64,000 nt of DNA from Candidatus Levyibacteriota bacterium (GTDB taxonomy: Bacteria > Patescibacteriota > Microgenomatia > Levybacterales > UBA12049): assembly GCA_016182235.1 (NCBI GenBank), contig JACOXT010000003.1, forward strand, positions 258,209 through 322,208, written 5' to 3'. The position numbers and the translations under genes were made by a program. Below are positions 5,057-42,430 of the stretch, one piece after another; the stretch's first letter is position 1, and the number at the start of each line of letters is the position of its first letter. The notes beneath the pieces were generated by a model. The model searched no databases. It saw only the letters and a list, made by a program, of their open reading frames with translations, and was not told where the DNA came from.

Positions 5057-6082
5057 ATGTTTATAAAAATATATGTTTTATTATTATTGATTTTAACAGT
5101 AACTGTCGGGATTTTTTTTCTTAATAAGGCTGACGATTTTAAGTTAAAGAATCCAGTGTCTCCTGAAAGGAAAGATCTTAGGAGAATTACCTCAGTTGAC
5201 ACAATGAAATATTCAAGAGATATTGCACGGGAGAAGCTTAAAGATTTGTCTTTTGACAATACTATAGAAAAACAAGTGAGAGATGTTGCTGCAACAGGAG
5301 CAACTCATGTGGCGGTAGGTACTCCTTATGATGACGAGTTCTTGCCATACCTAGACCGTTGGGTATCAACAGCAAGAAAATATAATCTCAGCGTCTGGTT
5401 TCGCGGAAATTTATCTGGGTGGGAAAAGTGGTTTGATTATCCTACAATTGGAAGGGATGAACATACGGCAGGGATAGTTAAATTTATTAATAACAACAAA
5501 TCTCTTTTTGAAGACGGAGATATTTTTGTGACTTGCAATGAATGCGAGAATGGCGGACCGGGAGATCCAAGGCATAATGGAGATGTTGCGGGTCATAGGG
5601 AGTTTCTGATCAAGGAATACAAGGAAGCAAAAAAGGCATTTGAGAAAATAGGTAAAAAGGTAGCTGCAAATTTTAACTCTATGAATGGAGACGTCGCTCG
5701 TTTAATTATGGACAAGGAAACAACAAAGGCGTTAGGCGGAATTGTTGTTGTAGATCATTATGTAAGAAGTCCCGAAGTTTTGGCAGAAGATCTAAAAAAC
5801 ATAGCGGAAAAAAGCGAAGGCAAAATAGTCCTTGGAGAATTCGGTGTGCCAATTCTGGACATAAACTCAGATATGACAGAAGAAGAGCAAGCGGATTGGA
5901 TAAACGAAGCTTTGGCACGAATATTTCTGATCCCAGAAGTAATAGGTGTAAATTATTGGGTAAATTTGGGAGGATCTACAAGTATTTGGAACGAAAATGG
6001 AAGTAAGAAATCCTCTGTTGATGTTATAACAAGTTATTACACAAAAAATAAGAAGAAGCTTCCTCGAAATCCTATTTTTTAA
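5057..6082 (+). CDS. membrane-anchored clan GH-A (GH5-like) TIM-barrel glycoside hydrolase candidate
   Basis: N-terminal TM segment. The NECENG and LGEFG motifs are spaced like the acid/base and nucleophile glutamates of clan GH-A enzymes. Confidence 0.45.
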   Translation: MFIKIYVLLLLILTVTVGIFFLNKADDFKLKNPVSPERKDLRRITSVDTMKYSRDIAREKLKDLSFDNTIEKQVRDVAATGATHVAVGTPYDDEFLPYLDRWVSTARKYNLSVWFRGNLSGWEKWFDYPTIGRDEHTAGIVKFINNNKSLFEDGDIFVTCNECENGGPGDPRHNGDVAGHREFLIKEYKEAKKAFEKIGKKVAANFNSMNGDVARLIMDKETTKALGGIVVVDHYVRSPEVLAEDLKNIAEKSEGKIVLGEFGVPILDINSDMTEEEQADWINEALARIFLIPEVIGVNYWVNLGGSTSIWNENGSKKSSVDVITSYYTKNKKKLPRNPIF

Positions 6083-12808: not shown

Positions 12809-12840
12809 AATAGTTCAATAGTTTAAACTATTGAACTATT
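12809..12840. promoter_or_regulatory. perfect 32-bp palindrome of four AATAGTT heptads (operator candidate 1)
   Basis: AATAGTTCAATAGTTTAAACTATTGAACTATT equals its own reverse complement. Related copies lie at 13863 and 14362. Confidence 0.6.
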
Positions 12841-12982: not shown

Positions 12983-13405
12983 TTATTTATAGTTCTCAAG
13001 CATAACTACTGTGCCATCGGTTATCTTACCATGTGCTTTGGCATCGGCGCTAATTAGTTTGGCATACTCGTCTTTTGCTGTTGCTACAAACAGTGCATCA
13101 TACGCGGCAATATTATAGGCTTCCATAATTTCTATTGTTTGATCTAATATTGCTTGAGATGATTCTTTTATGACTAGAGGCAAAGAAAAAAGATCACTTA
13201 TGCTTTTCTTTATTGCTTCAGCCGGCATGTGCTTACCCTTTTTGAGGGTGTTGATAATCTCAATTATGATAAGACTTGGAACAATCAAAAGGATTACGTT
13301 ACCCAACATGTCTTTGTAAATTTCATGAGCAATCTCAACACTTGATTCATTTTCTTGATTAAACCATTTAAGAACTACAGAGGTATCTACGACGTAAGTT
13401 TCCAT
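12983..13405 (-). CDS. vapC: PIN-domain toxin VapC
   Basis: N-terminal VVDTSV, plus the conserved acidic residues (IIEI, AYDALF, SAD) of PIN nucleases. It sits 3 nt downstream of an AbrB-type antitoxin gene. Confidence 0.8.
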   Translation of the reverse strand: METYVVDTSVVLKWFNQENESSVEIAHEIYKDMLGNVILLIVPSLIIIEIINTLKKGKHMPAEAIKKSISDLFSLPLVIKESSQAILDQTIEIMEAYNIAAYDALFVATAKDEYAKLISADAKAHGKITDGTVVMLENYK

Positions 13406-13408
13406 AGT

Positions 13409-13705
13409 TTAGAAATGAGTATCTCTATCGTGGCGTAAGAATTTAGTCAAATTGACACCTTGCTTGCCTAACTTGCTAATCCGTTTCATATCTTCCCATA
13501 TTCTTTCGCCCTCTTCCTTCGTCAACTTTTTTTTGGGATGTTGAGGGTGGGAAATAGGCACACGTTCCACTCTAAACCCAGAGGGTGTAGTCTCAATTTT
13601 TACTGTTAATTCTTCATCATGCCAATTTAAAGCCTCCCTTATTTCATTAGGAACTGTTAACTGACCCCTTTCTCTTACTCTAGTAATTTTCTGTATGTAA
13701 TTCAT
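13409..13705 (-). CDS. vapB: SpoVT/AbrB-type antitoxin VapB
   Basis: RGQLTVPNEIREAL swapped-hairpin motif. I chose the ATG at 13705 because TTGACA-N17-TATTCT-N7 precedes it. The track start at 13741 is a TTG inside the -35 hexamer. Confidence 0.7.
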   Translation of the reverse strand: MNYIQKITRVRERGQLTVPNEIREALNWHDEELTVKIETTPSGFRVERVPISHPQHPKKKLTKEEGERIWEDMKRISKLGKQGVNLTKFLRHDRDTHF

Positions 13706-13712
13706 ATAAATC

Positions 13713-13741
13713 AGAATATCAGAATAATCGTATTGTGTCAA
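13713..13741 (-). promoter_or_regulatory. promoter of vapBC (TTGACA-N17-TATTCT), 7 nt before the ATG
   Basis: The hexamers were read on the minus strand. The geometry implies a leaderless or near-leaderless transcript. Confidence 0.45.
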
Positions 13742-13862
13742 TATGGCAAAGTATGTATAATTGTGTTAATGAAGATTTTGGGGACGGCGGAGCTACCACA
13801 ATATCTGTAAAAGGATTTTTGTAACTCAAAAAACTCACTTCATATTCAAAATCCAGTCGTAT

Positions 13863-13890
13863 AATAGTTCAATAGTTTAAACTATTGAAC
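13863..13890. promoter_or_regulatory. heptad palindrome copy 2 (24-bp perfect core GTTCAATAGTTTAAACTATTGAAC)
   Basis: AATAGTTCAATAGTTTAAACTATTGAAC. It lies 7 nt beyond the stop of the YerC/TrpR-like gene. Confidence 0.55.
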
Positions 13891-13897
13891 CAAAGCA

Positions 13898-14356
13898 TTA
13901 AAACTTTTCTCTAATAATTTTTCTTTTAACTAATTCTTTTCCTTTTTTGCTTTTATTTTCAAAAGCTATACTTCCAAAACGTTTTGGCGGAGATAATTTG
14001 ATTAATATTTCTTCTACCTTATCGACTAGCGCTTCTTTGTTTTGTGCTTTTAATATGCTATCGACGACTTTTCTATAGCCGCTTTTTCCGTTTTTTAGCC
14101 AAAAAGAAACGCGCATAATCGTTGCGCGAGAAACTTTTAGCGTATCGTCAATCTCATCGTAAGTTTTCCCCTTAGCTAATAACACTGCTATTGCCAGCCT
14201 TTTTATAAGCATAATTTTTTCTGTAGGGGAAAGCAGATCATCTATAAAGTTCTTAGCCTCACCAGGTGTTCTAATATCTACGATTGTTTTTAAAAAAACC
14301 TGAAAAATTCTGTTTTCTAATTCTTTATCAAGGAATCTTCTGGAGACTTTTGTCAT
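13898..14356 (-). CDS. YerC/YecD (TrpR-like) helix-turn-helix DNA-binding protein
   Basis: Pattern LLSPTEKIMLIKRLAIAVLLAKGKTYDEIDDTLKVSRATIMRV, typical of TrpR-like YerC proteins. The gene is bracketed by the heptad palindromes. Confidence 0.7.
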   Translation of the reverse strand: MTKVSRRFLDKELENRIFQVFLKTIVDIRTPGEAKNFIDDLLSPTEKIMLIKRLAIAVLLAKGKTYDEIDDTLKVSRATIMRVSFWLKNGKSGYRKVVDSILKAQNKEALVDKVEEILIKLSPPKRFGSIAFENKSKKGKELVKRKIIREKF

Positions 14357-14361
14357 GTTGT

Positions 14362-14393
14362 TATAGTTTAATAGTTTAAACTATTAAACTATA
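14362..14393. promoter_or_regulatory. perfect 32-bp heptad palindrome (operator candidate 3) overlapping the regulator's own promoter
   Basis: TATAGTTTAATAGTTTAAACTATTAAACTATA. On the minus strand, TTGACG (14401-14396) -N17- TAAACT (14378-14373) places the -10 at the palindrome centre. The palindrome ends 5 nt before the ATG. Confidence 0.6.
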
Positions 14394-31375: not shown

Positions 31376-31840
31376 TTACCTGTATATAATAATCATTCTT
31401 CTTATTATTATGTCATCTTTTGATTTCAAAAAATCACCAGAAAAATCAAACCAAACTCTTTTGAAAGTCTGTCTATCTATAGTTCTTAATCCACCCAATT
31501 CTGGATCCTGCAAATAAACATTTTCTTTGTCAAGATCAACAACTACAGAATAATGTCCATCGTCTGTAGAAAACCAGTCTACTATTACAGGAATATTTTT
31601 ATTAAGGATATAAAGTTCAAGGTCTTTTATATCGGAGAAATCCTTAACTATGCCTCTAAACCCTAACTCTTTTGCTGCTTTCAGCAACCCTTTTGAATCA
31701 ACGCCAGAATGAGTTGTTGCGCCGGCTAGGTCAGCCAACTCTTTTTCACTTCTTTTGGTACCAAAATAATCAAGAACCATTTTCAAAGAAGCAGGTCCAC
31801 AAAGCCCAGATGATTGTCTAAAAGGTTTTACATTTAGCAT
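31376..31840 (-). CDS. stand-alone papain-like cysteine peptidase (C39-like domain)
   Basis: Internal ATG chosen (MLNVKPFRQSSGLCGPASLKMVLDYFG; Cys in GLCGPAS, later HYSVVVD). This start lies 1 nt after the stop of the ABC permease gene. Confidence 0.6.
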   Translation of the reverse strand: MLNVKPFRQSSGLCGPASLKMVLDYFGTKRSEKELADLAGATTHSGVDSKGLLKAAKELGFRGIVKDFSDIKDLELYILNKNIPVIVDWFSTDDGHYSVVVDLDKENVYLQDPELGGLRTIDRQTFKRVWFDFSGDFLKSKDDIIIRRMIIIYR

Positions 31841-31841
31841 A

Positions 31842-32627
31842 TTATCCTTCCATTCTAGCAAATTGCCCTGTATCTTTGGATTTGCTAAACATGATATTAA
31901 AAAACCAGAGGGAAAGCAGAAAGTAGAAAATGTTCCATCCAAACGCGATTCCAATATTAAGAAAGTCGATAGATGGATTTGTAAGGCTTTCTCTTGCTGC
32001 TTCAAAAACATAAGTAGCAGGAAGTAAATATGCTATTGTCTGAAGAGAATTGGGAAGGACGCTAACTGGAAAAAACATAGCGGTTAAGGGTTGAAAAATA
32101 AAAATGCTTCCCCATGCAAAAGCTTGGATTCTCGTACCATATCTAAATATTAGCCCAAGAATGAAAATTCCAACAGACCAAGCAAAAATAGTAAGGTTGA
32201 TAAAGAAAAAGGATAAATTTAAGATACCCATGCTAAAGACGTTAAATTGAAAAACAAGTAACGAAATAATTGCTACGAACATAAAAATTAAAAGCGCTTT
32301 TATTACTCCAGCCATCATCTCAGCTACGATATACTCTCTTAGCGATAAAGGGGTAATGAACATATTGCTTAGATTCTTAGACCATACATTCCAAAGGCTG
32401 CCAACAGACATAGAATATTGTGTAACTCTAATTATTTCCCAAAGGAGCATTCCCAATAGCAGGTAGCGGCCGGCTTGAGGATTATCCTTTGACAAAAAGA
32501 TAAATACGAATCCAAATACAACTATGTTTATTACTGAAAAATAAAAAAGATCTATAATTACCTCCAGAGAGCGTTTGGTAATATACAATTCCTGAAGAAG
32601 TATTGCTTTAATTATTTGAATTGACAT
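31842..32627 (-). CDS. ABC-2 type transporter permease
   Basis: Six TM segments. I chose the ATG at 32627, which is preceded by AAGGAAAG. It overlaps the end of the ATPase gene. Confidence 0.7.
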   Translation of the reverse strand: MSIQIIKAILLQELYITKRSLEVIIDLFYFSVINIVVFGFVFIFLSKDNPQAGRYLLLGMLLWEIIRVTQYSMSVGSLWNVWSKNLSNMFITPLSLREYIVAEMMAGVIKALLIFMFVAIISLLVFQFNVFSMGILNLSFFFINLTIFAWSVGIFILGLIFRYGTRIQAFAWGSIFIFQPLTAMFFPVSVLPNSLQTIAYLLPATYVFEAARESLTNPSIDFLNIGIAFGWNIFYFLLSLWFFNIMFSKSKDTGQFARMEG

Positions 32628-33546
32628 ATTTATCTTTCCTTGCCATTTGCAGAAAGAAGTCTTCAAGCGTTGGCTTCTTTACTTCAATATCGGTAATCCA
32701 TATCCCACTCTCACCAAGTCCAAAAATAATCTTTGGGATAAATCTCTCTTCAGTACTGATTATTACTAGATTATTATCTGTAAGAGCATACTTTTGATTG
32801 TGGTCTTTCAAATATTTTTTAACAGTATTCTTGTCACCGTCAAATATTAATCTTAGCTGAGTTCTTGATATGCGTTTAGTAAGACCAAGAGGGGAATCTT
32901 CCGCAACGATTCTACCATGATCTAAAAAGATTACCCTATCGCAAACTCTGGTAATCTCGTCCATATTATGGCTTGTGTACAATAAAGATATATTTCTTGA
33001 TTTTTTAAGCATCTCAATTAACGAAAGTGTTTTATCTGCAATATCTGGATCTAAGCTGGCGGTGGGTTCGTCCATGAGGATAATCTCCGGATCATTAATA
33101 AGAGCCTTAATAAGGTTGACTCGGGTTTTTTGCCCTGCAGATAAGTCCCAGTAACGAGTTGAGAGCATATCGGTAATTTCAAAATACTCGACAAAATCCA
33201 TTATTTTTTTTCTTGGATTTTTTACTCTATAAAGATTGGCAAAGACCAGTAAGTTTTCCCAAATAGAGATCCTACCCTGGAGAGTATTAAACGCTGATGC
33301 AAAGTTAACTCTTTGTAGGCAATATCGTCGATTGCTGTATAAATCTTTACCAAAATATTTAATAGTGCCATTAGTAGTCTGAGTAATGCCAAGAAGCATA
33401 TGGATTGTGGTTGTTTTTCCTGCGCCATTTGGTCCAAGAAGGCCTAATACTTCTCCTTTTTTCAAAGAAAAAGAAATATCATGAACTGCAGTGAAATCTT
33501 TAAATTTTTTGGTAAGGTTTCTCACTTCTAAAATCGAATTATCCAT
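32608..33546 (-). CDS. ABC transporter ATP-binding protein
   Basis: Walker A GPNGAGKTT, signature LSAGQKTR, Walker B ILMDEPT. Confidence 0.9.
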   Translation of the reverse strand: MDNSILEVRNLTKKFKDFTAVHDISFSLKKGEVLGLLGPNGAGKTTTIHMLLGITQTTNGTIKYFGKDLYSNRRYCLQRVNFASAFNTLQGRISIWENLLVFANLYRVKNPRKKIMDFVEYFEITDMLSTRYWDLSAGQKTRVNLIKALINDPEIILMDEPTASLDPDIADKTLSLIEMLKKSRNISLLYTSHNMDEITRVCDRVIFLDHGRIVAEDSPLGLTKRISRTQLRLIFDGDKNTVKKYLKDHNQKYALTDNNLVIISTEERFIPKIIFGLGESGIWITDIEVKKPTLEDFFLQMARKDKYVNSNN

Positions 33547-33607
33547 AGCTTCTTAGATTGTATCATCTTTAAGGATTTAATTTAAACGGAAGATTTGGAG
33601 AAGTAAA

Positions 33608-33631
33608 TTATCGTTGACTAGACGACGATAA
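33608..33631. promoter_or_regulatory. 24-nt quasi-palindrome TTATCGTTGACTAGACGACGATAA (site A of the second YerC-like gene)
   Basis: 20 of 24 positions are self-complementary. It lies 11 nt past the stop of the YerC-like gene, upstream of the ABC operon. Confidence 0.5.
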
Positions 33632-33642
33632 ATTGTCTAACA

Positions 33643-34053
33643 TTATCTTTTTATATCAGTTCTTTTAATACCGGTATATTCTCTTTTTTTGAATACAAGC
33701 TGGGATCCTCCGATTGAACGATACTTTTTCTCTTTATATTCTTTTTCCACTTTTTTACCTCGTTTTTCAATAAGTTCAAATGCAATAGGACGATTGTCGA
33801 GTTGTCTCATTACCGAAAAAATTGTGTTTTTTCCTACTTTGAGTTCTTTTACAATCTCCTCTATATGTATTCCTGATTTAATATATTCGGCTATAATTAT
33901 TCTTCTTCCGATCTTCATTTTTTCATCATGAGTTAAGAGACCGTTTATAATTTCATCTACTTCATTTCCATCTTTTGCAGCAAGGAATACATCTCGCAGT
34001 CTATTGAAGGCTTCATATATAAGCTCTTTCGTCAGAAATTTGTACCTTCTCAT
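33643..34053 (-). CDS. YerC/YecD (TrpR-like) DNA-binding protein, second paralogue
   Basis: LLTHDEKMKIGRRIIIAEYIKSGIHIEEIVKELKVGKNTIFSV, the same pattern as the 13898..14356 product. Confidence 0.7.
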   Translation of the reverse strand: MRRYKFLTKELIYEAFNRLRDVFLAAKDGNEVDEIINGLLTHDEKMKIGRRIIIAEYIKSGIHIEEIVKELKVGKNTIFSVMRQLDNRPIAFELIEKRGKKVEKEYKEKKYRSIGGSQLVFKKREYTGIKRTDIKR

Positions 34054-34058
34054 ACTGA

Positions 34059-34082
34059 GTATCGTTGTCTAGTCAACAAAAT
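34059..34082. promoter_or_regulatory. site B, related to site A (shares TATCGTTG-n-CTAG; core GTCTAGTCAAC is the reverse complement of GTTGACTAGAC in site A)
   Basis: It starts 5-6 nt upstream of the regulator's ATG, the same placement as palindrome 14362-14393 at the first paralogue. Confidence 0.5.
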
Positions 34083-35558: not shown

Positions 35559-37313
35559 ATGAAGGATGAAATAAGAAGTAAGAAAAAATGGAAAATCTTG
35601 AGCGAATCAGGAATTAGGAATCAGAAAATGGGAATCAGAAAATTGATAAAAATTTTACTGAATAATCGGGGGATTAAGACGAAGAAAGAGACTGAAGGGT
35701 TTTTGAACCCAAGACTTGAGAGCGTCACCGTTGAGAATGTCGGAATTAATAAAAAAGAACTAAAAAAGGCAATTATTAGAATTAAAGACGCAATAAAGAA
35801 AAATGAACAAATTGTAATTTTTGGTGATTATGATGTTGATGGAATTTGTGGTACAGCCATTCTTTGGGAAACTCTAAATAAATTGGGAGCAAAAGTCATT
35901 CCCTATATTCCTCACCGAGCTGAAGAGGGTTATGGGTTGTCAATTACTGGAATATCAAATATTAAGAATAAAATACCTGTCTCGCCGACAGGCGGGCAAA
36001 ATATAAAATTAATTATAACTGTTGATAATGGGATTGTCGCAAATAAAGCTGTTGAATTTGCAAATAAAAATGAAATAGATGTAATTATTACCGATCATCA
36101 TGTTGCCTCTAAAAAATTGCCAGATGCTTTGGCGATTGTACATACGACCAAACTTTGCGGAACAGGAGTGGCTTGGTTGCTATCTAAAAATGTCATTCTG
36201 AGTGAAGCGAAGAATCCAGGAGATCCTTCGGCTATGCCTCAGGATGACAATATGAATGAAAGTCATCTGGAGCTTGTGGCGTTGGCGACTGTTGCGGATT
36301 TGGTTCCATTACAAGGGGCAAATAGAACTCTCTTGAAGTCTGGATTAGAGAGTTTAGGAAAAACAAAAAGAGTAGGGCTTTTGGAATTATTTAAGGAGGG
36401 AGGATTAGATAAAAATTCAATTGGGGTTTACGAAATAGGACATATTATCGCGCCTCGACTTAATGCTATGGGTCGCCTAGAGTATGCTATGGATAGTCTT
36501 AGGCTTCTTTGCACTAACAATAAAAAAAAGGCGGAAGAATTAGCCATGCTTTTGGGAAATACCAATAGGGAAAGACAGGAATTAACTATGCAAACAGTTT
36601 TACATGCAAAAGACTCAATTTCAGATAATGGGTTATCGTCAAAGAAACTTTTGTTTGTTGCTCATAAGAATTATGAACAGGGTATTATTGGTCTTGTCGC
36701 TGGGAAGATGGTTGATGAATATTATCGTCCGTCAATTGTTGTTTCCATTGGGGAAAAAATAAGTAAAGGATCAGCAAGATCTGTAAGCGGATTTAATATT
36801 ATTGAATTTATTCGAGAGTCCTCCTCGTATCTTGTTGACGCTGGAGGACATCCGATGGCGGCAGGTTTTACAGTCGAAACAACAAAGCTTTTAGAGCTTC
36901 GAAAAGACTTAGAAGAAAGAGTTCAGTCTTTGATTGATGGTGAAACGCTTGCTCGAAGCTTAAATATTGACTGTGAGTTACCGCTGTCTTTGGTTAATCA
37001 AGATGTTTATGATGCCCTCCAAAGATTGGCACCTTTTGGAATGAAAAATCCAGAGCCTGCATTTATGGCAAAGGATGTAGAAATAGAAGATTTGAGATTA
37101 GTAGGTTATAACTCTAATCATTTAAAGCTAAGGCTGAGAGATTCCTCAAAAACAATTGATGCGATCGCATTTGGCATGGGAGAGATGTCAAAAGAAGTAC
37201 ATGTAGGAGACAAAATAAGTGTTGTATATGTAATTGATGAAAATGTTTGGAATGGAAATAAAAAATTACAGCTGAAAATTAAAGATATTAGAAGATTTAT
37301 TTATCTAACTTGA
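35559..37313 (+). CDS. recJ: single-stranded-DNA-specific exonuclease RecJ
   Basis: DHH family motifs (IFGDYDVDGICG, ITVDNGI, VIITDHH), DHHA1 (GGHPMAAG) and a C-terminal OB-like domain. Confidence 0.9.
   Translation: MKDEIRSKKKWKILSESGIRNQKMGIRKLIKILLNNRGIKTKKETEGFLNPRLESVTVENVGINKKELKKAIIRIKDAIKKNEQIVIFGDYDVDGICGTAILWETLNKLGAKVIPYIPHRAEEGYGLSITGISNIKNKIPVSPTGGQNIKLIITVDNGIVANKAVEFANKNEIDVIITDHHVASKKLPDALAIVHTTKLCGTGVAWLLSKNVILSEAKNPGDPSAMPQDDNMNESHLELVALATVADLVPLQGANRTLLKSGLESLGKTKRVGLLELFKEGGLDKNSIGVYEIGHIIAPRLNAMGRLEYAMDSLRLLCTNNKKKAEELAMLLGNTNRERQELTMQTVLHAKDSISDNGLSSKKLLFVAHKNYEQGIIGLVAGKMVDEYYRPSIVVSIGEKISKGSARSVSGFNIIEFIRESSSYLVDAGGHPMAAGFTVETTKLLELRKDLEERVQSLIDGETLARSLNIDCELPLSLVNQDVYDALQRLAPFGMKNPEPAFMAKDVEIEDLRLVGYNSNHLKLRLRDSSKTIDAIAFGMGEMSKEVHVGDKISVVYVIDENVWNGNKKLQLKIKDIRRFIYLT
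35976..35996 (+). repeat. GC-rich mini-hairpin CCTGTCTCGCCGACAGGCGGG inside recJ (encodes PVSPTGG)
   Basis: CCTGTC/GACAGG stem. Local GC is far above the surrounding coding sequence. Confidence 0.5.
36193..36249 (+). repeat. 57-nt imperfect hairpin repeat inserted in frame in recJ
   Basis: GTCATTCTGAG...CTCAGGATGAC termini with internal GAAGCGAAGAATC / GATCCTTCGGC pairing. 19 codons encoding VILSEAKNPGDPSAMPQDD. Confidence 0.6.
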
Positions 37314-37651
37314 TTATTTACTCGACCTAGACCATTAACAATGCTTACTAAATTAGTAGATATATCGTGTTGTTCACGTGCTGTTGCCGCATGAAATTTA
37401 CCTATTATTGCTGTTACATTATTTCGAACTGCTCTCCTGTCAACACCCAATCCTAGGAGATGGTTAGCGTAAGTATTTACACAACTTTCAAAGCCATCTT
37501 TATCTACAACATGGTTTGGGTATATTTGATATACTCCATCGTCATAGCATGCCCCTATAGCTCCTCCGTCAACTGCTCTTCGTAAATTATCAAATACACT
37601 TTGTGCATACGATGAAGAAGCATGTGTTGTCCTGCTTTCTATTTCAGTCAT
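37301..37651 (-). CDS. hypothetical protein (orphan, 116 aa from the internal ATG)
   Basis: ORF convergent with recJ and overlapping its 3' end by 13 nt. I prefer the start MTEIES because an 18-bp palindrome/promoter region lies just upstream. The track start at 37747 abuts another palindrome. Confidence 0.4.
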   Translation of the reverse strand: MTEIESRTTHASSSYAQSVFDNLRRAVDGGAIGACYDDGVYQIYPNHVVDKDGFESCVNTYANHLLGLGVDRRAVRNNVTAIIGKFHAATAREQHDISTNLVSIVNGLGRVNNQVR

Positions 37652-37663
37652 ATAATAAAATAA

Positions 37664-37681
37664 AGTCGCATATATGCGACT
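37664..37681. promoter_or_regulatory. perfect 18-bp palindrome AGTCGCATATATGCGACT
   Basis: 12 nt upstream of the ATG at 37651 (minus strand). Confidence 0.4.
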
Positions 37682-37747
37682 ATTGACTAATAAGATACAG
37701 TTTTTTAAAAAGTCTAGCTTGACGTTTGTCTGACAAAAAGATGACAT

Positions 37748-37767
37748 CTTGTAATCTAGATTACAAG
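37748..37767. promoter_or_regulatory. perfect 20-bp palindrome CTTGTAATCTAGATTACAAG followed by ATTTTT
   Basis: It lies in the divergent region between the orphan gene and aspS. It could be an operator or a plus-strand terminator-like hairpin. Confidence 0.35.
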
Positions 37768-37873
37768 ATTTTTCGAAATGACTTAAAGATTGCTTCGTTA
37801 CGCCAAGTCAGACTACGCTCGCAATGACAGCTTGGACTTGCTATGGTCAACATAAATGATTAAAATATGAATT

Positions 37874-41182: not shown

Positions 41183-42430
41183 ATGGTAAGAGTACGTATT
41201 GCCCCTAGCCCAACTGGAATTCCCCATATCGGAAACACCCGTACCGCGCTTTTTAACTTCCTATTTGCGAAACATAATAAAGGGAAATTTGTTCTTCGTA
41301 TCGAAGATACAGATCAAAAAAGAATTGTCAAAGGAGCTAAAGAAGCAATAGTAGAAATTTTAGAATGGCTTGGGATGGACGTAGATGAAATGCATATCCA
41401 ATCAGAAAGATTAGATGAATATAAAAAGTATGCAAAAGTACTTGTTGAGAGCGACTTGGCTTTTGAAGAAGAAGGTGCAATATGGATGAAAATGCCAAAA
41501 GGAAAGATTTTTTCTTGGCAAGACAAAATCGGCAATAAAAAAATATCATTCAAAAGTGATGTTTTGGAGGACTTTGTGATACTAAAATCAGATGGTTTTC
41601 CGACTTATCATCTAGCAAATGTGGTTGACGATCACCTTATGAATATTTCCCATATCATAAGAGGAGATGAGTGGATTTCCTCAACACCAAAGCACATCTT
41701 ACTTTATGAATCTTTTGGCTGGAAGCTTCCTTTATTTGCCCATTTACCTGTTATTTTGGGTCCTGATAAAACAAAATTATCAAAGCGTCATGGTGCAAAA
41801 TCCGTACTGGATTACAGGAGCGAGGGATATTTAAAAGAAGCGCTTATTAATTTCATGGCTCTCTTGGGCTGGGGTCCTTCAGCAAACAAAGAGTTAATGG
41901 ATATATCAGAAATGATAAGCCTTTTTGATCTTTCAGACGTTAATTCCGCAAGCCCAATTTTCGACATCAAGAAATTGGATTGGATGAATGGAGAATACAT
42001 TAGAAGGACTCAGAACTCAAAACTCAAAACTCAAATCTGGGAATATTTAGGTAAGAAATACCCTATTCAAATCATTGAAAAGACGATACCGTTGGCGAGA
42101 GACAGGATTAAAAAACTATCCGATTATCTGCCTCTTTGCGAATTCTTTTTCAAAGAACCAAATAAGTATGAGATTGATCTTTCTCAAAAAAAAGATATGT
42201 TGCGACATGTTTTAAATACTTTAAAAGGTCTAAGAAATTGGAAAGGGGTTGTTCTTGGAGAGAAAATGCAAAAATTAGCTTCGTCACTTAAGATCAGAAA
42301 TAGTGAATTTTTCATGATGCTTAGAGTTGCGATAACTGGAAAGAAAATCTCTCCGCCATTGAATGAATCAATGGAGATTTTGGGTAAAGAAAAAGTGTTG
42401 GAAAGAATTAAGAATGCGATGCCGTTATGA
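41183..42430 (+). CDS. gltX: glutamate--tRNA ligase (short form)
   Basis: Start taken at MVRVRIAPSPTGIPHIGNTRTALFN (HIGH motif); KLSKRH (KMSKS). The track ORF begins 55 codons too early. Confidence 0.85.
   Translation: MVRVRIAPSPTGIPHIGNTRTALFNFLFAKHNKGKFVLRIEDTDQKRIVKGAKEAIVEILEWLGMDVDEMHIQSERLDEYKKYAKVLVESDLAFEEEGAIWMKMPKGKIFSWQDKIGNKKISFKSDVLEDFVILKSDGFPTYHLANVVDDHLMNISHIIRGDEWISSTPKHILLYESFGWKLPLFAHLPVILGPDKTKLSKRHGAKSVLDYRSEGYLKEALINFMALLGWGPSANKELMDISEMISLFDLSDVNSASPIFDIKKLDWMNGEYIRRTQNSKLKTQIWEYLGKKYPIQIIEKTIPLARDRIKKLSDYLPLCEFFFKEPNKYEIDLSQKKDMLRHVLNTLKGLRNWKGVVLGEKMQKLASSLKIRNSEFFMMLRVAITGKKISPPLNESMEILGKEKVLERIKNAMPL

Follow-up and report, generated by a model that had tools for sequence, protein, structure and literature searches.

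Why does a short bacterial gene carry closely similar palindromes just before its start codon and just after its stop codon? The question is raised by a contig of a Candidatus Levyibacteriota bacterium (JACOXT010000003.1, assembly GCA_016182235.1), of which a stretch of 64,000 nt, here called the window, was analysed. On its minus strand lies a gene for a 136-aa protein with a predicted TrpR fold, bracketed by a downstream palindrome, site A, and an upstream one, site B. Bacteria of the Candidate Phyla Radiation (CPR, or Patescibacteria) have tiny genomes and few regulators, and almost no cis-regulatory elements have been characterised in them. The analysis suggests, with a probability of roughly 0.6, that the gene encodes a CPR-specific TrpR-fold repressor that represses its own transcription through two cognate operators enclosing its gene. 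An original prediction, made from the letters of the window, had already proposed private operators for this regulator; it had also proposed the control of a downstream exporter unit and, alternatively, a mobile cassette.

Two matching sites at the ends of one gene

When the window was re-read, the coordinates and sequences originally given for the gene and both sites proved correct in every detail (Table 1). The encoded protein is 100% identical to HYT07_01880 from a Candidatus Levybacteria metagenome-assembled genome. Read on the gene strand, site A is TTATCGTCGTCT on one side of its centre and AGTCAACGATAA on the other, and 10 of its 12 symmetric pairs are complementary (20/24 positions); only 11 of the 24-mers in the window reach at least 10/12 palindromic pairs, site A among them. 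Site B reads ATTTTGTTGACT and AGACAACGATAC in the same manner. Together, the two sites form an 18-nt inverted repeat with 17/18 complementary positions (33613-33630 against 34060-34077). The sequence GTTGACTAGAC occurs in the window solely at 33613 (plus) and 34067 (minus), and the motif TATCGTTG-n-CTAG has exactly two copies in 64 kb, one at each gene end. There are also exactly two copies of TATCGTTGNCTAG, which gave 0 matches in 100 dinucleotide-preserving shuffles; when up to two mismatches are allowed, the further matches are the second halves of the sites themselves and one unrelated two-mismatch match at 42087. The tetranucleotide CTAG is under-represented in the window (100 observed vs 126-209 expected). 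The bracketing is far beyond chance because the layout recurs in dozens of other genomes.

Table 1. Positions of the regulator gene, its sites, its protein segments and the sister unit in the window
Feature	Position	Strand	Description
136-aa TrpR-fold regulator gene	33643..34053	minus	Open reading frame with translation; stop codon counted in the range
Site A, putative downstream operator	33608..33631		11 nt past the stop; TTATCGTTGACTAGACGACGATAA
Site B, putative upstream operator	34059..34082		Edge 5 nt from the ATG, centre 17 nt before the ATG; GTATCGTTGTCTAGTCAACAAAAT
Helix-turn-helix region	33793..33870	minus	Residues ~62-87; IHIEEIVKELKVGKNTIFSVMRQLDN
Conserved C-terminal extension	33646..33756	minus	Residues ~100-136; ...KKYRxIGGSxLVFKKKEYTGFKR...
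Sister unit: 152-aa TrpR/YerC-like first paralogue	13898..14356	minus	Pfam Trp_repressor, 58 bits
Upstream palindrome of the sister unit	14366..14389		AATAGTT-type; GTTTAATAGTTTAAACTATTAAAC
Downstream palindrome of the sister unit	13867..13890		AATAGTT-type; GTTCAATAGTTTAAACTATTGAAC

The survey of related genomes covered one genome per species and 45 loci encoding relatives of the 136-aa protein (loci and contigs carry L numbers here). In almost every surveyed locus, a CTAG-centred palindrome of about 24 bp lies just before the ATG and another just after the stop codon. The arm sequences agree within a genome and differ between genomes; examples present on both sides are ACCGTCGACTAGTCGACGGT in L024, TACGATGTTCTAGAACATCGTA in L025 and GTATCGTAGACTAGACTACGATAC in L015. 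For 42 orthologue loci of Microgenomates CPR genomes, the upstream flank was compared with the downstream flank of the same locus; the best 20-nt match averaged 17.0, as against 14.3 for mismatched locus pairs, and the observed mean was reached in 0/10,000 permutations. The sites are also rare around each gene, with only two per locus within +/-3 kb. Both sites are retained in L170, the closest relative (86% amino acid identity), despite a 47-nt indel between the stop codon and the downstream site. The systematic bracketing that the original prediction had expected of related genomes is thus present, with upstream and downstream sites that match within genomes and differ between them.

Geometry and half-sites were determined in 26 loci, where the palindromes were centred with a CTAG-weighted script; four loci with an ACTGTA core (L016, L019, L030 and L031) were mis-centred by this script and left out. 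The half-site consensus is G-T-a-Y-C-G-T-N-G-W-C-T up to the dyad, so that the full site consists of GTaYCGTnGWCT and AGWCnACGRtAC on the two sides of the dyad. T at position -6 is found in 104/104 half-sites and CT is conserved at -2/-1, while position -5 is free. Some lineages (L011, L012, L028, L032 and L039) have two CTAGs 8 bp apart. Measured to its centre, the upstream site is 10-58 nt from the ATG (mode 15-19), and the downstream site, irrespective of which gene comes next, is 11-42 nt past the stop codon. Both sites stay beside the reading frame even where the intergenic regions measure 200-870 nt. Between the downstream site and the next gene there are 16 to 650 nt; this gene is convergent in roughly ten loci, where the downstream site is still kept.

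The genes adjoining the regulator vary. The next gene may encode an ABC transporter protein, MetK, YqeY, RecX, GatC or RRF, or it may be a convergent gene for UppS or an M23 peptidase. The neighbours verified with Pfam (CCA-adding enzyme, ABC transporter, YqeY, MetK, RecX, GatC, RRF and UppS) are housekeeping genes without a common theme. Close relatives share a frame that consists of the CCA enzyme, the regulator, a variable insert (an ABC pair, MetK or none) and YqeY.

A TrpR-fold protein and its putative operators

The 136-aa protein passes the Pfam Trp_repressor model (PF01371) marginally, with 27.6 bits vs a cut-off of 27.0, and a precomputed match to this model is present in most of its homologues. 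A profile built from its alignment (A1) matches the TrpR-like structures 3kor, 3g1c and 3frw with E = 1e-6 to 3e-5. An AlphaFold2 model based on 59 homologues reached a pLDDT (predicted local distance difference test) of 87. In the Protein Data Bank, the top 30 Foldseek matches of the model are all TrpR or TrpR-like (probability 0.99-1.00, TM-score to target 0.6-0.8), and the best of them, 3frw, 1trr, 3g1c, 3kor and 1tro, have TM-scores to target of 0.7-0.8. According to the model, the protein therefore has the all-helical TrpR fold with a helix-turn-helix (HTH). Nevertheless, it scores only 21.6 bits vs 67.25 with the NCBIfam equivalog model for TrpR (TIGR01321) and 17.3 bits vs 42.2 with the one for YerC/YecD, that is, HisR (TIGR02531). 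Since both scores are below the cut-offs, the protein is an equivalog of neither, and the name YerC-like, which it had originally received, is too specific. The family is also narrow. There were 263 homologues, almost all of the named ones from Levybacteria, and only 47 clusters (50% identity) were obtained at E <= 1e-10 among 1.8 billion representative proteins. As far as these searches reach, the regulator family is specific to Microgenomates CPR bacteria.

In the model, the HTH region contains helices 64-71 and 75-87, and the recognition helix starts at K75; V73, G74 and T77 are invariant in the homologue alignment. The C-terminal extension comprises the end of a long helix and a beta-hairpin with strands 111-114 and 123-126. 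Across the 59 aligned sequences, G115 and K122 of this extension never vary, and Y106, G116, Y126, G128 and R131 are invariant or nearly so. Canonical TrpR/YerC proteins of about 100 aa lack this extension, and the structures of TrpR, YerC and HisR stop near alignment residue 100-110.

The sites vary together with the part of the protein that would read them. The distance between sites correlates with the distance between HTH regions when the rest of the protein is controlled for (partial Mantel r = 0.35, reached by 1/5,000 permutations); in the converse analysis, the partial correlation is 0.16. Types of recognition helix cluster with types of site. Additionally, paralogue pairs within the same genome (L011/L027 and L014/L018) have different sites. 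The claim that each TrpR-like paralogue has a private palindrome was borne out in this way, and so was the claim that protein and site co-vary. This part of the original interpretation, a private putative operator co-varying with its protein, is strongly supported by the comparisons, and the bracketing palindrome is most likely the regulator's own binding site.

A mechanism can be outlined on this basis. The regulator would bind the palindrome of about 24 bp, centred on CTAG, as a symmetric dimer or as tandem dimers. The CTAG core and the tandem CTAGs 8 bp apart support the operator reading, as they match the architecture of TrpR operators. The upstream operator would be situated just after the predicted -10 element, over the transcription start and nearly the whole short leader, and binding there would repress transcription of the regulator's own gene. 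The best sigma-70-like promoter of about ten loci has its end 17-22 nt before the centre of the upstream site; therefore, the operator would cover about +1 to about +24. The downstream copy, within about 0-30 nt of the stop codon, would be a second operator of the regulator's own unit. It is preferred here that the two bound complexes bridge, with the C-terminal extension proposed as the mediator of the dimer-dimer contacts, so that a loop of about 450 bp would form over the gene. Such a loop would also block RNA polymerase crossing the 3' border of the gene in either direction. Each paralogue would have evolved its own operator sequence, which would result in units without cross-talk. DNA binding, repression as the sign of the regulation, and the looping or roadblock at the 3' site are each things that we infer.

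Two other ways of assigning the start signals were rejected or found unlikely in the window. The TTGACT within the site cannot serve as the -35 element of the regulator, as its spacing to any -10 fails. A leaderless start is unlikely for the regulator in this lineage, since the -10-like GATACT is only 4 nt from the ATG.

Several points weigh against the proposed autorepression by two enclosing operators. A looping partner need not sit exactly at a stop codon, so the tight 3' anchoring is only partly explained. The centre-to-centre distance of the sites is 441-506 bp, and no helical phasing of these distances was found in the 26 loci (Rayleigh p = 0.66), which gives looping no support; loops of about 450 bp tolerate phase changes, which softens this null result. 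The promoter calls are consensus matches only, and the promoter of the regulator in the window itself is not clear-cut. The same extended motif is found beside unrelated genes on other CPR contigs. A metagenome motif scan for CGTTGWCTAGWCAACG returned at least 120 stretches; among the matches listed, most are chance matches in GC-rich contigs, 12 adjoin TrpR-like genes, and about ten are low-GC orphan sites that carry the extended consensus beside unrelated genes without a functional theme. These orphan sites suggest that the regulon is not just the regulator itself, and the definition of a regulon from the scan was rejected because most of the matches are due to chance. One orphan site (L153) adjoins an ATG at the spacing seen for the regulator gene, and another (L073/L161) lies between convergent genes. 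Sense-strand mismatches at the upstream sites are compatible with G-U pairing more often (20) than they are of the A-C kind (7), and this excess may leave room for an additional role of the leader at the RNA level. Finally, sites are also found at some breakpoints of rearrangements (L123, L144/L153, and the toxin-antitoxin insertion at the first paralogue).

The proposed layout can be compared with known repressors. In E. coli, TrpR acts on operators of trpEDCBA, aroH and, by autoregulation, trpR, and the trp operator has the layout CTAG-N4-CTAG. The CPR regulator resembles TrpR in its fold (Foldseek 1tro and 1trr, Pfam PF01371), in a palindromic putative operator of about 20-24 bp around CTAG, with tandem CTAGs 8 bp apart in several CPR lineages, and in the operator at the regulator's own promoter. 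Unlike TrpR, it has 136 aa with a conserved C-terminal beta-hairpin extension, a second putative operator directly after its stop codon and no tryptophan genes among its neighbours, and most CPR lineages have a single central CTAG with CGTnG arms.

The palindrome bound by TrpR has 20 bp with GNACT half-sites (PMC9413887). HisR, which in B. subtilis is YerC, belongs to the TrpR family as well and represses in a histidine-dependent manner. Its operators are lineage-specific 20-bp palindromes with the consensus cacTTTAnnnnnnTAAAgtg, located before his and transporter genes; about half of the genomes also have one before hisR, and a few genomes have paralogue pairs (PMC9413887). The CPR system shares with HisR the protein family, the palindromic and lineage-specific sites, the site at the regulator's own gene and occasional paralogue pairs. 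However, the HisR consensus is unrelated to the site of the 136-aa regulator, no bracket around hisR has been reported, and the neighbours here are housekeeping genes, not his genes. In place of genes for histidine biosynthesis or uptake, the neighbours are the CCA-adding enzyme, the ABC transporter and YqeY genes. For this reason, the label "YerC-like" on these CPR genes should not be taken as "histidine repressor".

Operators that flank a repressor gene or cooperate at a distance are known from other protein families. The OL and OR operators of phage lambda flank the cI-rex genes, and LacI uses O1 and O2, where auxiliary operators and DNA loops are involved. Here, too, two cognate operators a few hundred bp apart would enclose or follow the regulated gene, and those of lambda flank the repressor gene itself. 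Unlike in these systems, looping is only postulated in the CPR locus, the helical phasing is not conserved, the protein family is different, and the second site is fixed at the stop codon of the small gene that encodes the regulator. In the searched literature, no description of a second operator pinned to the stop codon was found for TrpR, HisR or YerC. The site-gene-site layout is real and conserved and apparently undescribed; it reveals an arrangement in which one putative operator lies at the transcription start and another is pinned to the stop codon. It also provides dozens of naturally co-varying pairs of TrpR-fold proteins and putative operators from three subfamilies. They can be used as a data set for a recognition code and as a source of repressor-operator parts without cross-reaction.

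Competing explanations of the bracket

A broader version of the same idea, which appears unlikely, regards the site-gene-site unit as a self-contained module. The gene would be sealed in a protein-DNA loop or insulator by its own two operators; or the sites would also be recombination points, at which the unit or adjacent cargo is excised, lost or inserted. In either form, non-cross-reacting families of such modules would have diversified across the Microgenomates CPR. The recombination version would be in keeping with three observations described below: L123 has a solo site, synteny breaks off at sites, and a toxin-antitoxin pair was inserted with a duplicated site.

According to the original prediction, site B autoregulates, while site A is the operator of the downstream unit for an ABC ATPase, an ABC-2 permease and a C39-like peptidase, so that the regulator would be a dedicated regulator of an exporter. 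Site A is indeed part of the 96-nt spacer that separates the regulator gene from the co-directional gene for the ABC ATPase (32608..33546), and the order of regulator and then ABC genes is also found in L002, L003, L005, L029 and L171. In a few lineages, the downstream site abuts the start of the next gene, which it precedes by 24 nt (L015) and 16 nt (L025) at recX and by 17 nt in L039. However, the downstream site generally follows the stop of the regulator and not the start of the next gene, to which its distance varies much more widely, and it is kept where the next gene is different or even convergent. An ABC pair is situated upstream of the regulator in L001 and L026, and no third site was found upstream of these ABC genes within +/-3 kb. 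The predicted ABC promoter in the window is TTTAAA-18-TGnTACAAT (33586..33557); site A ends 22 nt upstream of its -35, at which distance a bound protein would not occlude the promoter. The C39 gene, moreover, is not present in the ABC-carrying relatives. Control of this exporter is thus unlikely, and the prediction did not hold on this point: the site is anchored to the stop codon of the regulator and persists beside convergent or unrelated genes.

The C39-like peptidase gene (31376..32011, minus strand) follows the ABC-2 permease gene in the window and is missing from the five relatives with the same ABC pair. Judged from these neighbourhoods, it is a lineage-specific addition. As listed, its reading frame overlaps that of the permease by 170 nt; therefore, the start codon of one or the other has probably been set wrongly.

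A minimal mobile or excisable cassette had been offered as the alternative to regulation. The palindromes would be recombination or terminal sites, and the HTH protein would be the subunit for site recognition, with catalysis in trans. The tight bracket at both ends of the reading frame in three subfamilies would suit such a cassette, and so would the variable genes that adjoin the sites on either side. The 9-bp arms around a 6-bp, often asymmetric core resemble the core sites of recombinases. Both paralogues give weak matches to models of the IS630 transposase HTH, of which the match of the 136-aa protein to HTH_Tnp_IS630 is sub-threshold (20.7 bits vs 21.3). Known systems of this type are the repetitive extragenic palindromic (REP) sequences that flank the genes of REP-associated tyrosine transposases (RAYT), and the terminal repeats of IS630/Tc1 elements, which are bound by the N-terminal HTH of the transposase. 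They share with the CPR units the gene of a DNA-binding protein flanked by cognate repeats, a repeat family for each paralogue and some extra copies elsewhere.

Individual loci also bear on this cassette. In L123, one solo site (5213-5228) lies between the genes for the CCA-adding enzyme and YqeY, without a regulator gene, exactly at the position that the regulator occupies in relatives. The contigs L153 and L144 are 94% identical over 655 nt up to a site (660 in L153, 7680 in L144), where the homology ends, and they are unrelated beyond it. The palindromes therefore coincide with a possible gene loss and with a rearrangement breakpoint. The closest relative of L123 that bears the gene has only about 70% nucleotide identity, so that either deletion or insertion may account for the difference. 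At the first paralogue, a toxin-antitoxin gene pair is flanked by duplicated segments of site plus flank. The orphan sites, L123 and L153/L144 may reflect a small regulon or rearrangements at palindromes, and they keep a recombination reading alive at low probability.

Nevertheless, a mobile cassette is quite improbable. The order and orientation of the CCA enzyme, the regulator and YqeY are kept in all of about 14 syntenic loci at a protein identity of only 60-70%, which indicates long vertical inheritance, and no flipped copy was seen among them. The relative orientation of the asymmetric cores (ACTAGA vs TCTAGT) is random, with 12 direct, 10 inverted and 4 ties in the 26 loci; such randomness is not expected of terminal inverted repeats, of a dedicated excision or inversion system or of a 5'-3' RNA duplex. 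The 136 aa contain no catalytic domain, neither HUH nor DDE, and no recombinase is encoded within +/-3 kb, where the neighbours are housekeeping genes. Unlike REP/RAYT and IS630/Tc1 repeats, the sites occur in only two copies per +/-3 kb and nowhere else in the 64 kb, with random orientation and conserved synteny. Unlike an IS630/Tc1-type element or a cassette of the miniature inverted-repeat kind, the unit shows no multiple near-identical copies, no consistently inverted repeats and, with its conserved synteny, no varying insertion sites; one empty allele, L123, exists. The only other copy in the window, the first paralogue, is just 27% identical to the 136-aa protein over the TrpR-like core, hence the two are not recent copies. 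Palindromes can, furthermore, be passive hotspots of rearrangement. The cassette that had been proposed as an alternative is therefore largely not borne out. PADLOC and PHROG searches with the 136-aa protein gave no matches, which speaks against the cassette as well, and an affiliation of the regulator with a defence system or a phage was rejected on the same ground.

An equally slim chance is given to the explanation that the palindromes act mainly as RNA hairpins of the regulator mRNA, one in the 5' leader and the other as a 3' terminator or stabiliser, and not as protein-binding DNA. Transcription is predicted to start at the left edge of the upstream palindrome, so that the leader is essentially the palindrome, and the downstream palindrome has a terminator-like position. 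The excess of G-U-compatible mismatches at the upstream sites and the orphan site between convergent genes point in the same direction. However, hairpins alone leave it unexplained that one sequence is common to the 5' and 3' sites and co-varies with the HTH region, and they do not explain the invariant CTAG/CGT positions and the free position -5 inside the supposed stem. In the window, the sense-strand hairpins are weak (-3.9 and -5.6 kcal/mol, z ~ -0.8) and no better than those of shuffles, and the downstream sites show no G-U bias (13 vs 14). A terminator scan of the window yielded no terminator-like site with a T-run, and Rfam gave no match at E <= 1. A sense-strand hairpin or terminator was rejected on these grounds, and a 5'-3' RNA panhandle between the sites was excluded by their random relative orientation.

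Sister families and further sites

The window contains a second unit of the same type, as the original prediction had recognised. The first paralogue passes the YerC/YecD model barely (42.6 bits vs a cut-off of 42.2), and the AATAGTT-type palindromes at both of its ends are unrelated to sites A and B. In four further genomes with a member of the 152-aa family (L166-L169), 4/4 have palindromes that adjoin the ATG and lie 0-20 nt after the stop codon. They are of the TTCAATAGTT..AACTATTGAA type, and L167 and L169 have variants common to both sides. Both available examples of a third, distant subfamily (144-146 aa) are likewise bracketed, by GACCCGTTGACTAGTCAACGGGTC on both sides in L159 and by TACTCATGTACTAGTACATGAGTA in L172. 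All three bracketed subfamilies extend beyond the TrpR core of about 100 aa, and two canonical YerC-like genes on CPR contigs (90-100 aa) have a site on one side only.

Beside the sister unit, a third identical copy of GTTCAATAGTTTAAACTATTGAAC lies at 12813-12836, beyond an AbrB/MazE-like and PIN gene pair (13409..13741 and 12983..13405). About 100 nt beside copies 2 and 3 of this palindrome are homologous, and a piece of gene 14467 from its 5' end (ATGAAGATTTTGGGGA) recurs at 13773. The toxin-antitoxin pair appears to have arrived by an insertion that also duplicated the site and the flank beside it.

Five of the orphan sites (L054 5506, L101 1941, L114 569, L144 7680 and L153 660) share a one-sided element of about 75 nt, TAATTCAGATGAATTAACTCAGATGTTTTAAAAGATTAAAGTAAATTCAA.CCTA.CCAATC, for which an Rfam search gave no match. 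The contigs L072, L080, L086, L088, L117 (at both ends) and L135, from the sample Ga0210059, begin or end exactly at the palindrome CGTTGTCTAGACAACG and have identical inverted flanks of about 200 nt. These contig ends are probably an assembly break or a fold-back at the palindrome and, less likely, a small element with palindromic ends.

Many genes of the window have a -10 element of the TGnTAnnnT type that ends 5-8 nt before the ATG (e.g., 8322, 14467, 22659, 44201, 45402, 50010 and 54229), and a Shine-Dalgarno-like motif is present in only 10/63 genes. Most mRNAs of this Levybacteria genome appear to be leaderless or nearly so, which bears on how all of its intergenic signals should be read. 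The regulator is an exception to the pattern, with a leader of about 25-30 nt made of the palindrome.

A perfect 24-nt palindrome centred on CTAG, ATCTTGTAATCTAGATTACAAGAT, is found once in the window, at 37746-37769, where it overlaps the ATG of a reading frame of 148 aa (37301..37747, minus strand). The product of this frame gave no Pfam-like HTH, PADLOC or PHROG match. The palindrome is similar to CAGTAATCTAGATTACTG, which another subfamily has as its putative operator in L033/L036, and it may serve as an orphan operator for a TrpR-like regulator whose gene lies beyond the window. At ~37661-37684, 60 nt deeper in the same reading frame, there is another palindrome, AAAGTCGCATATATGCGACTTT.

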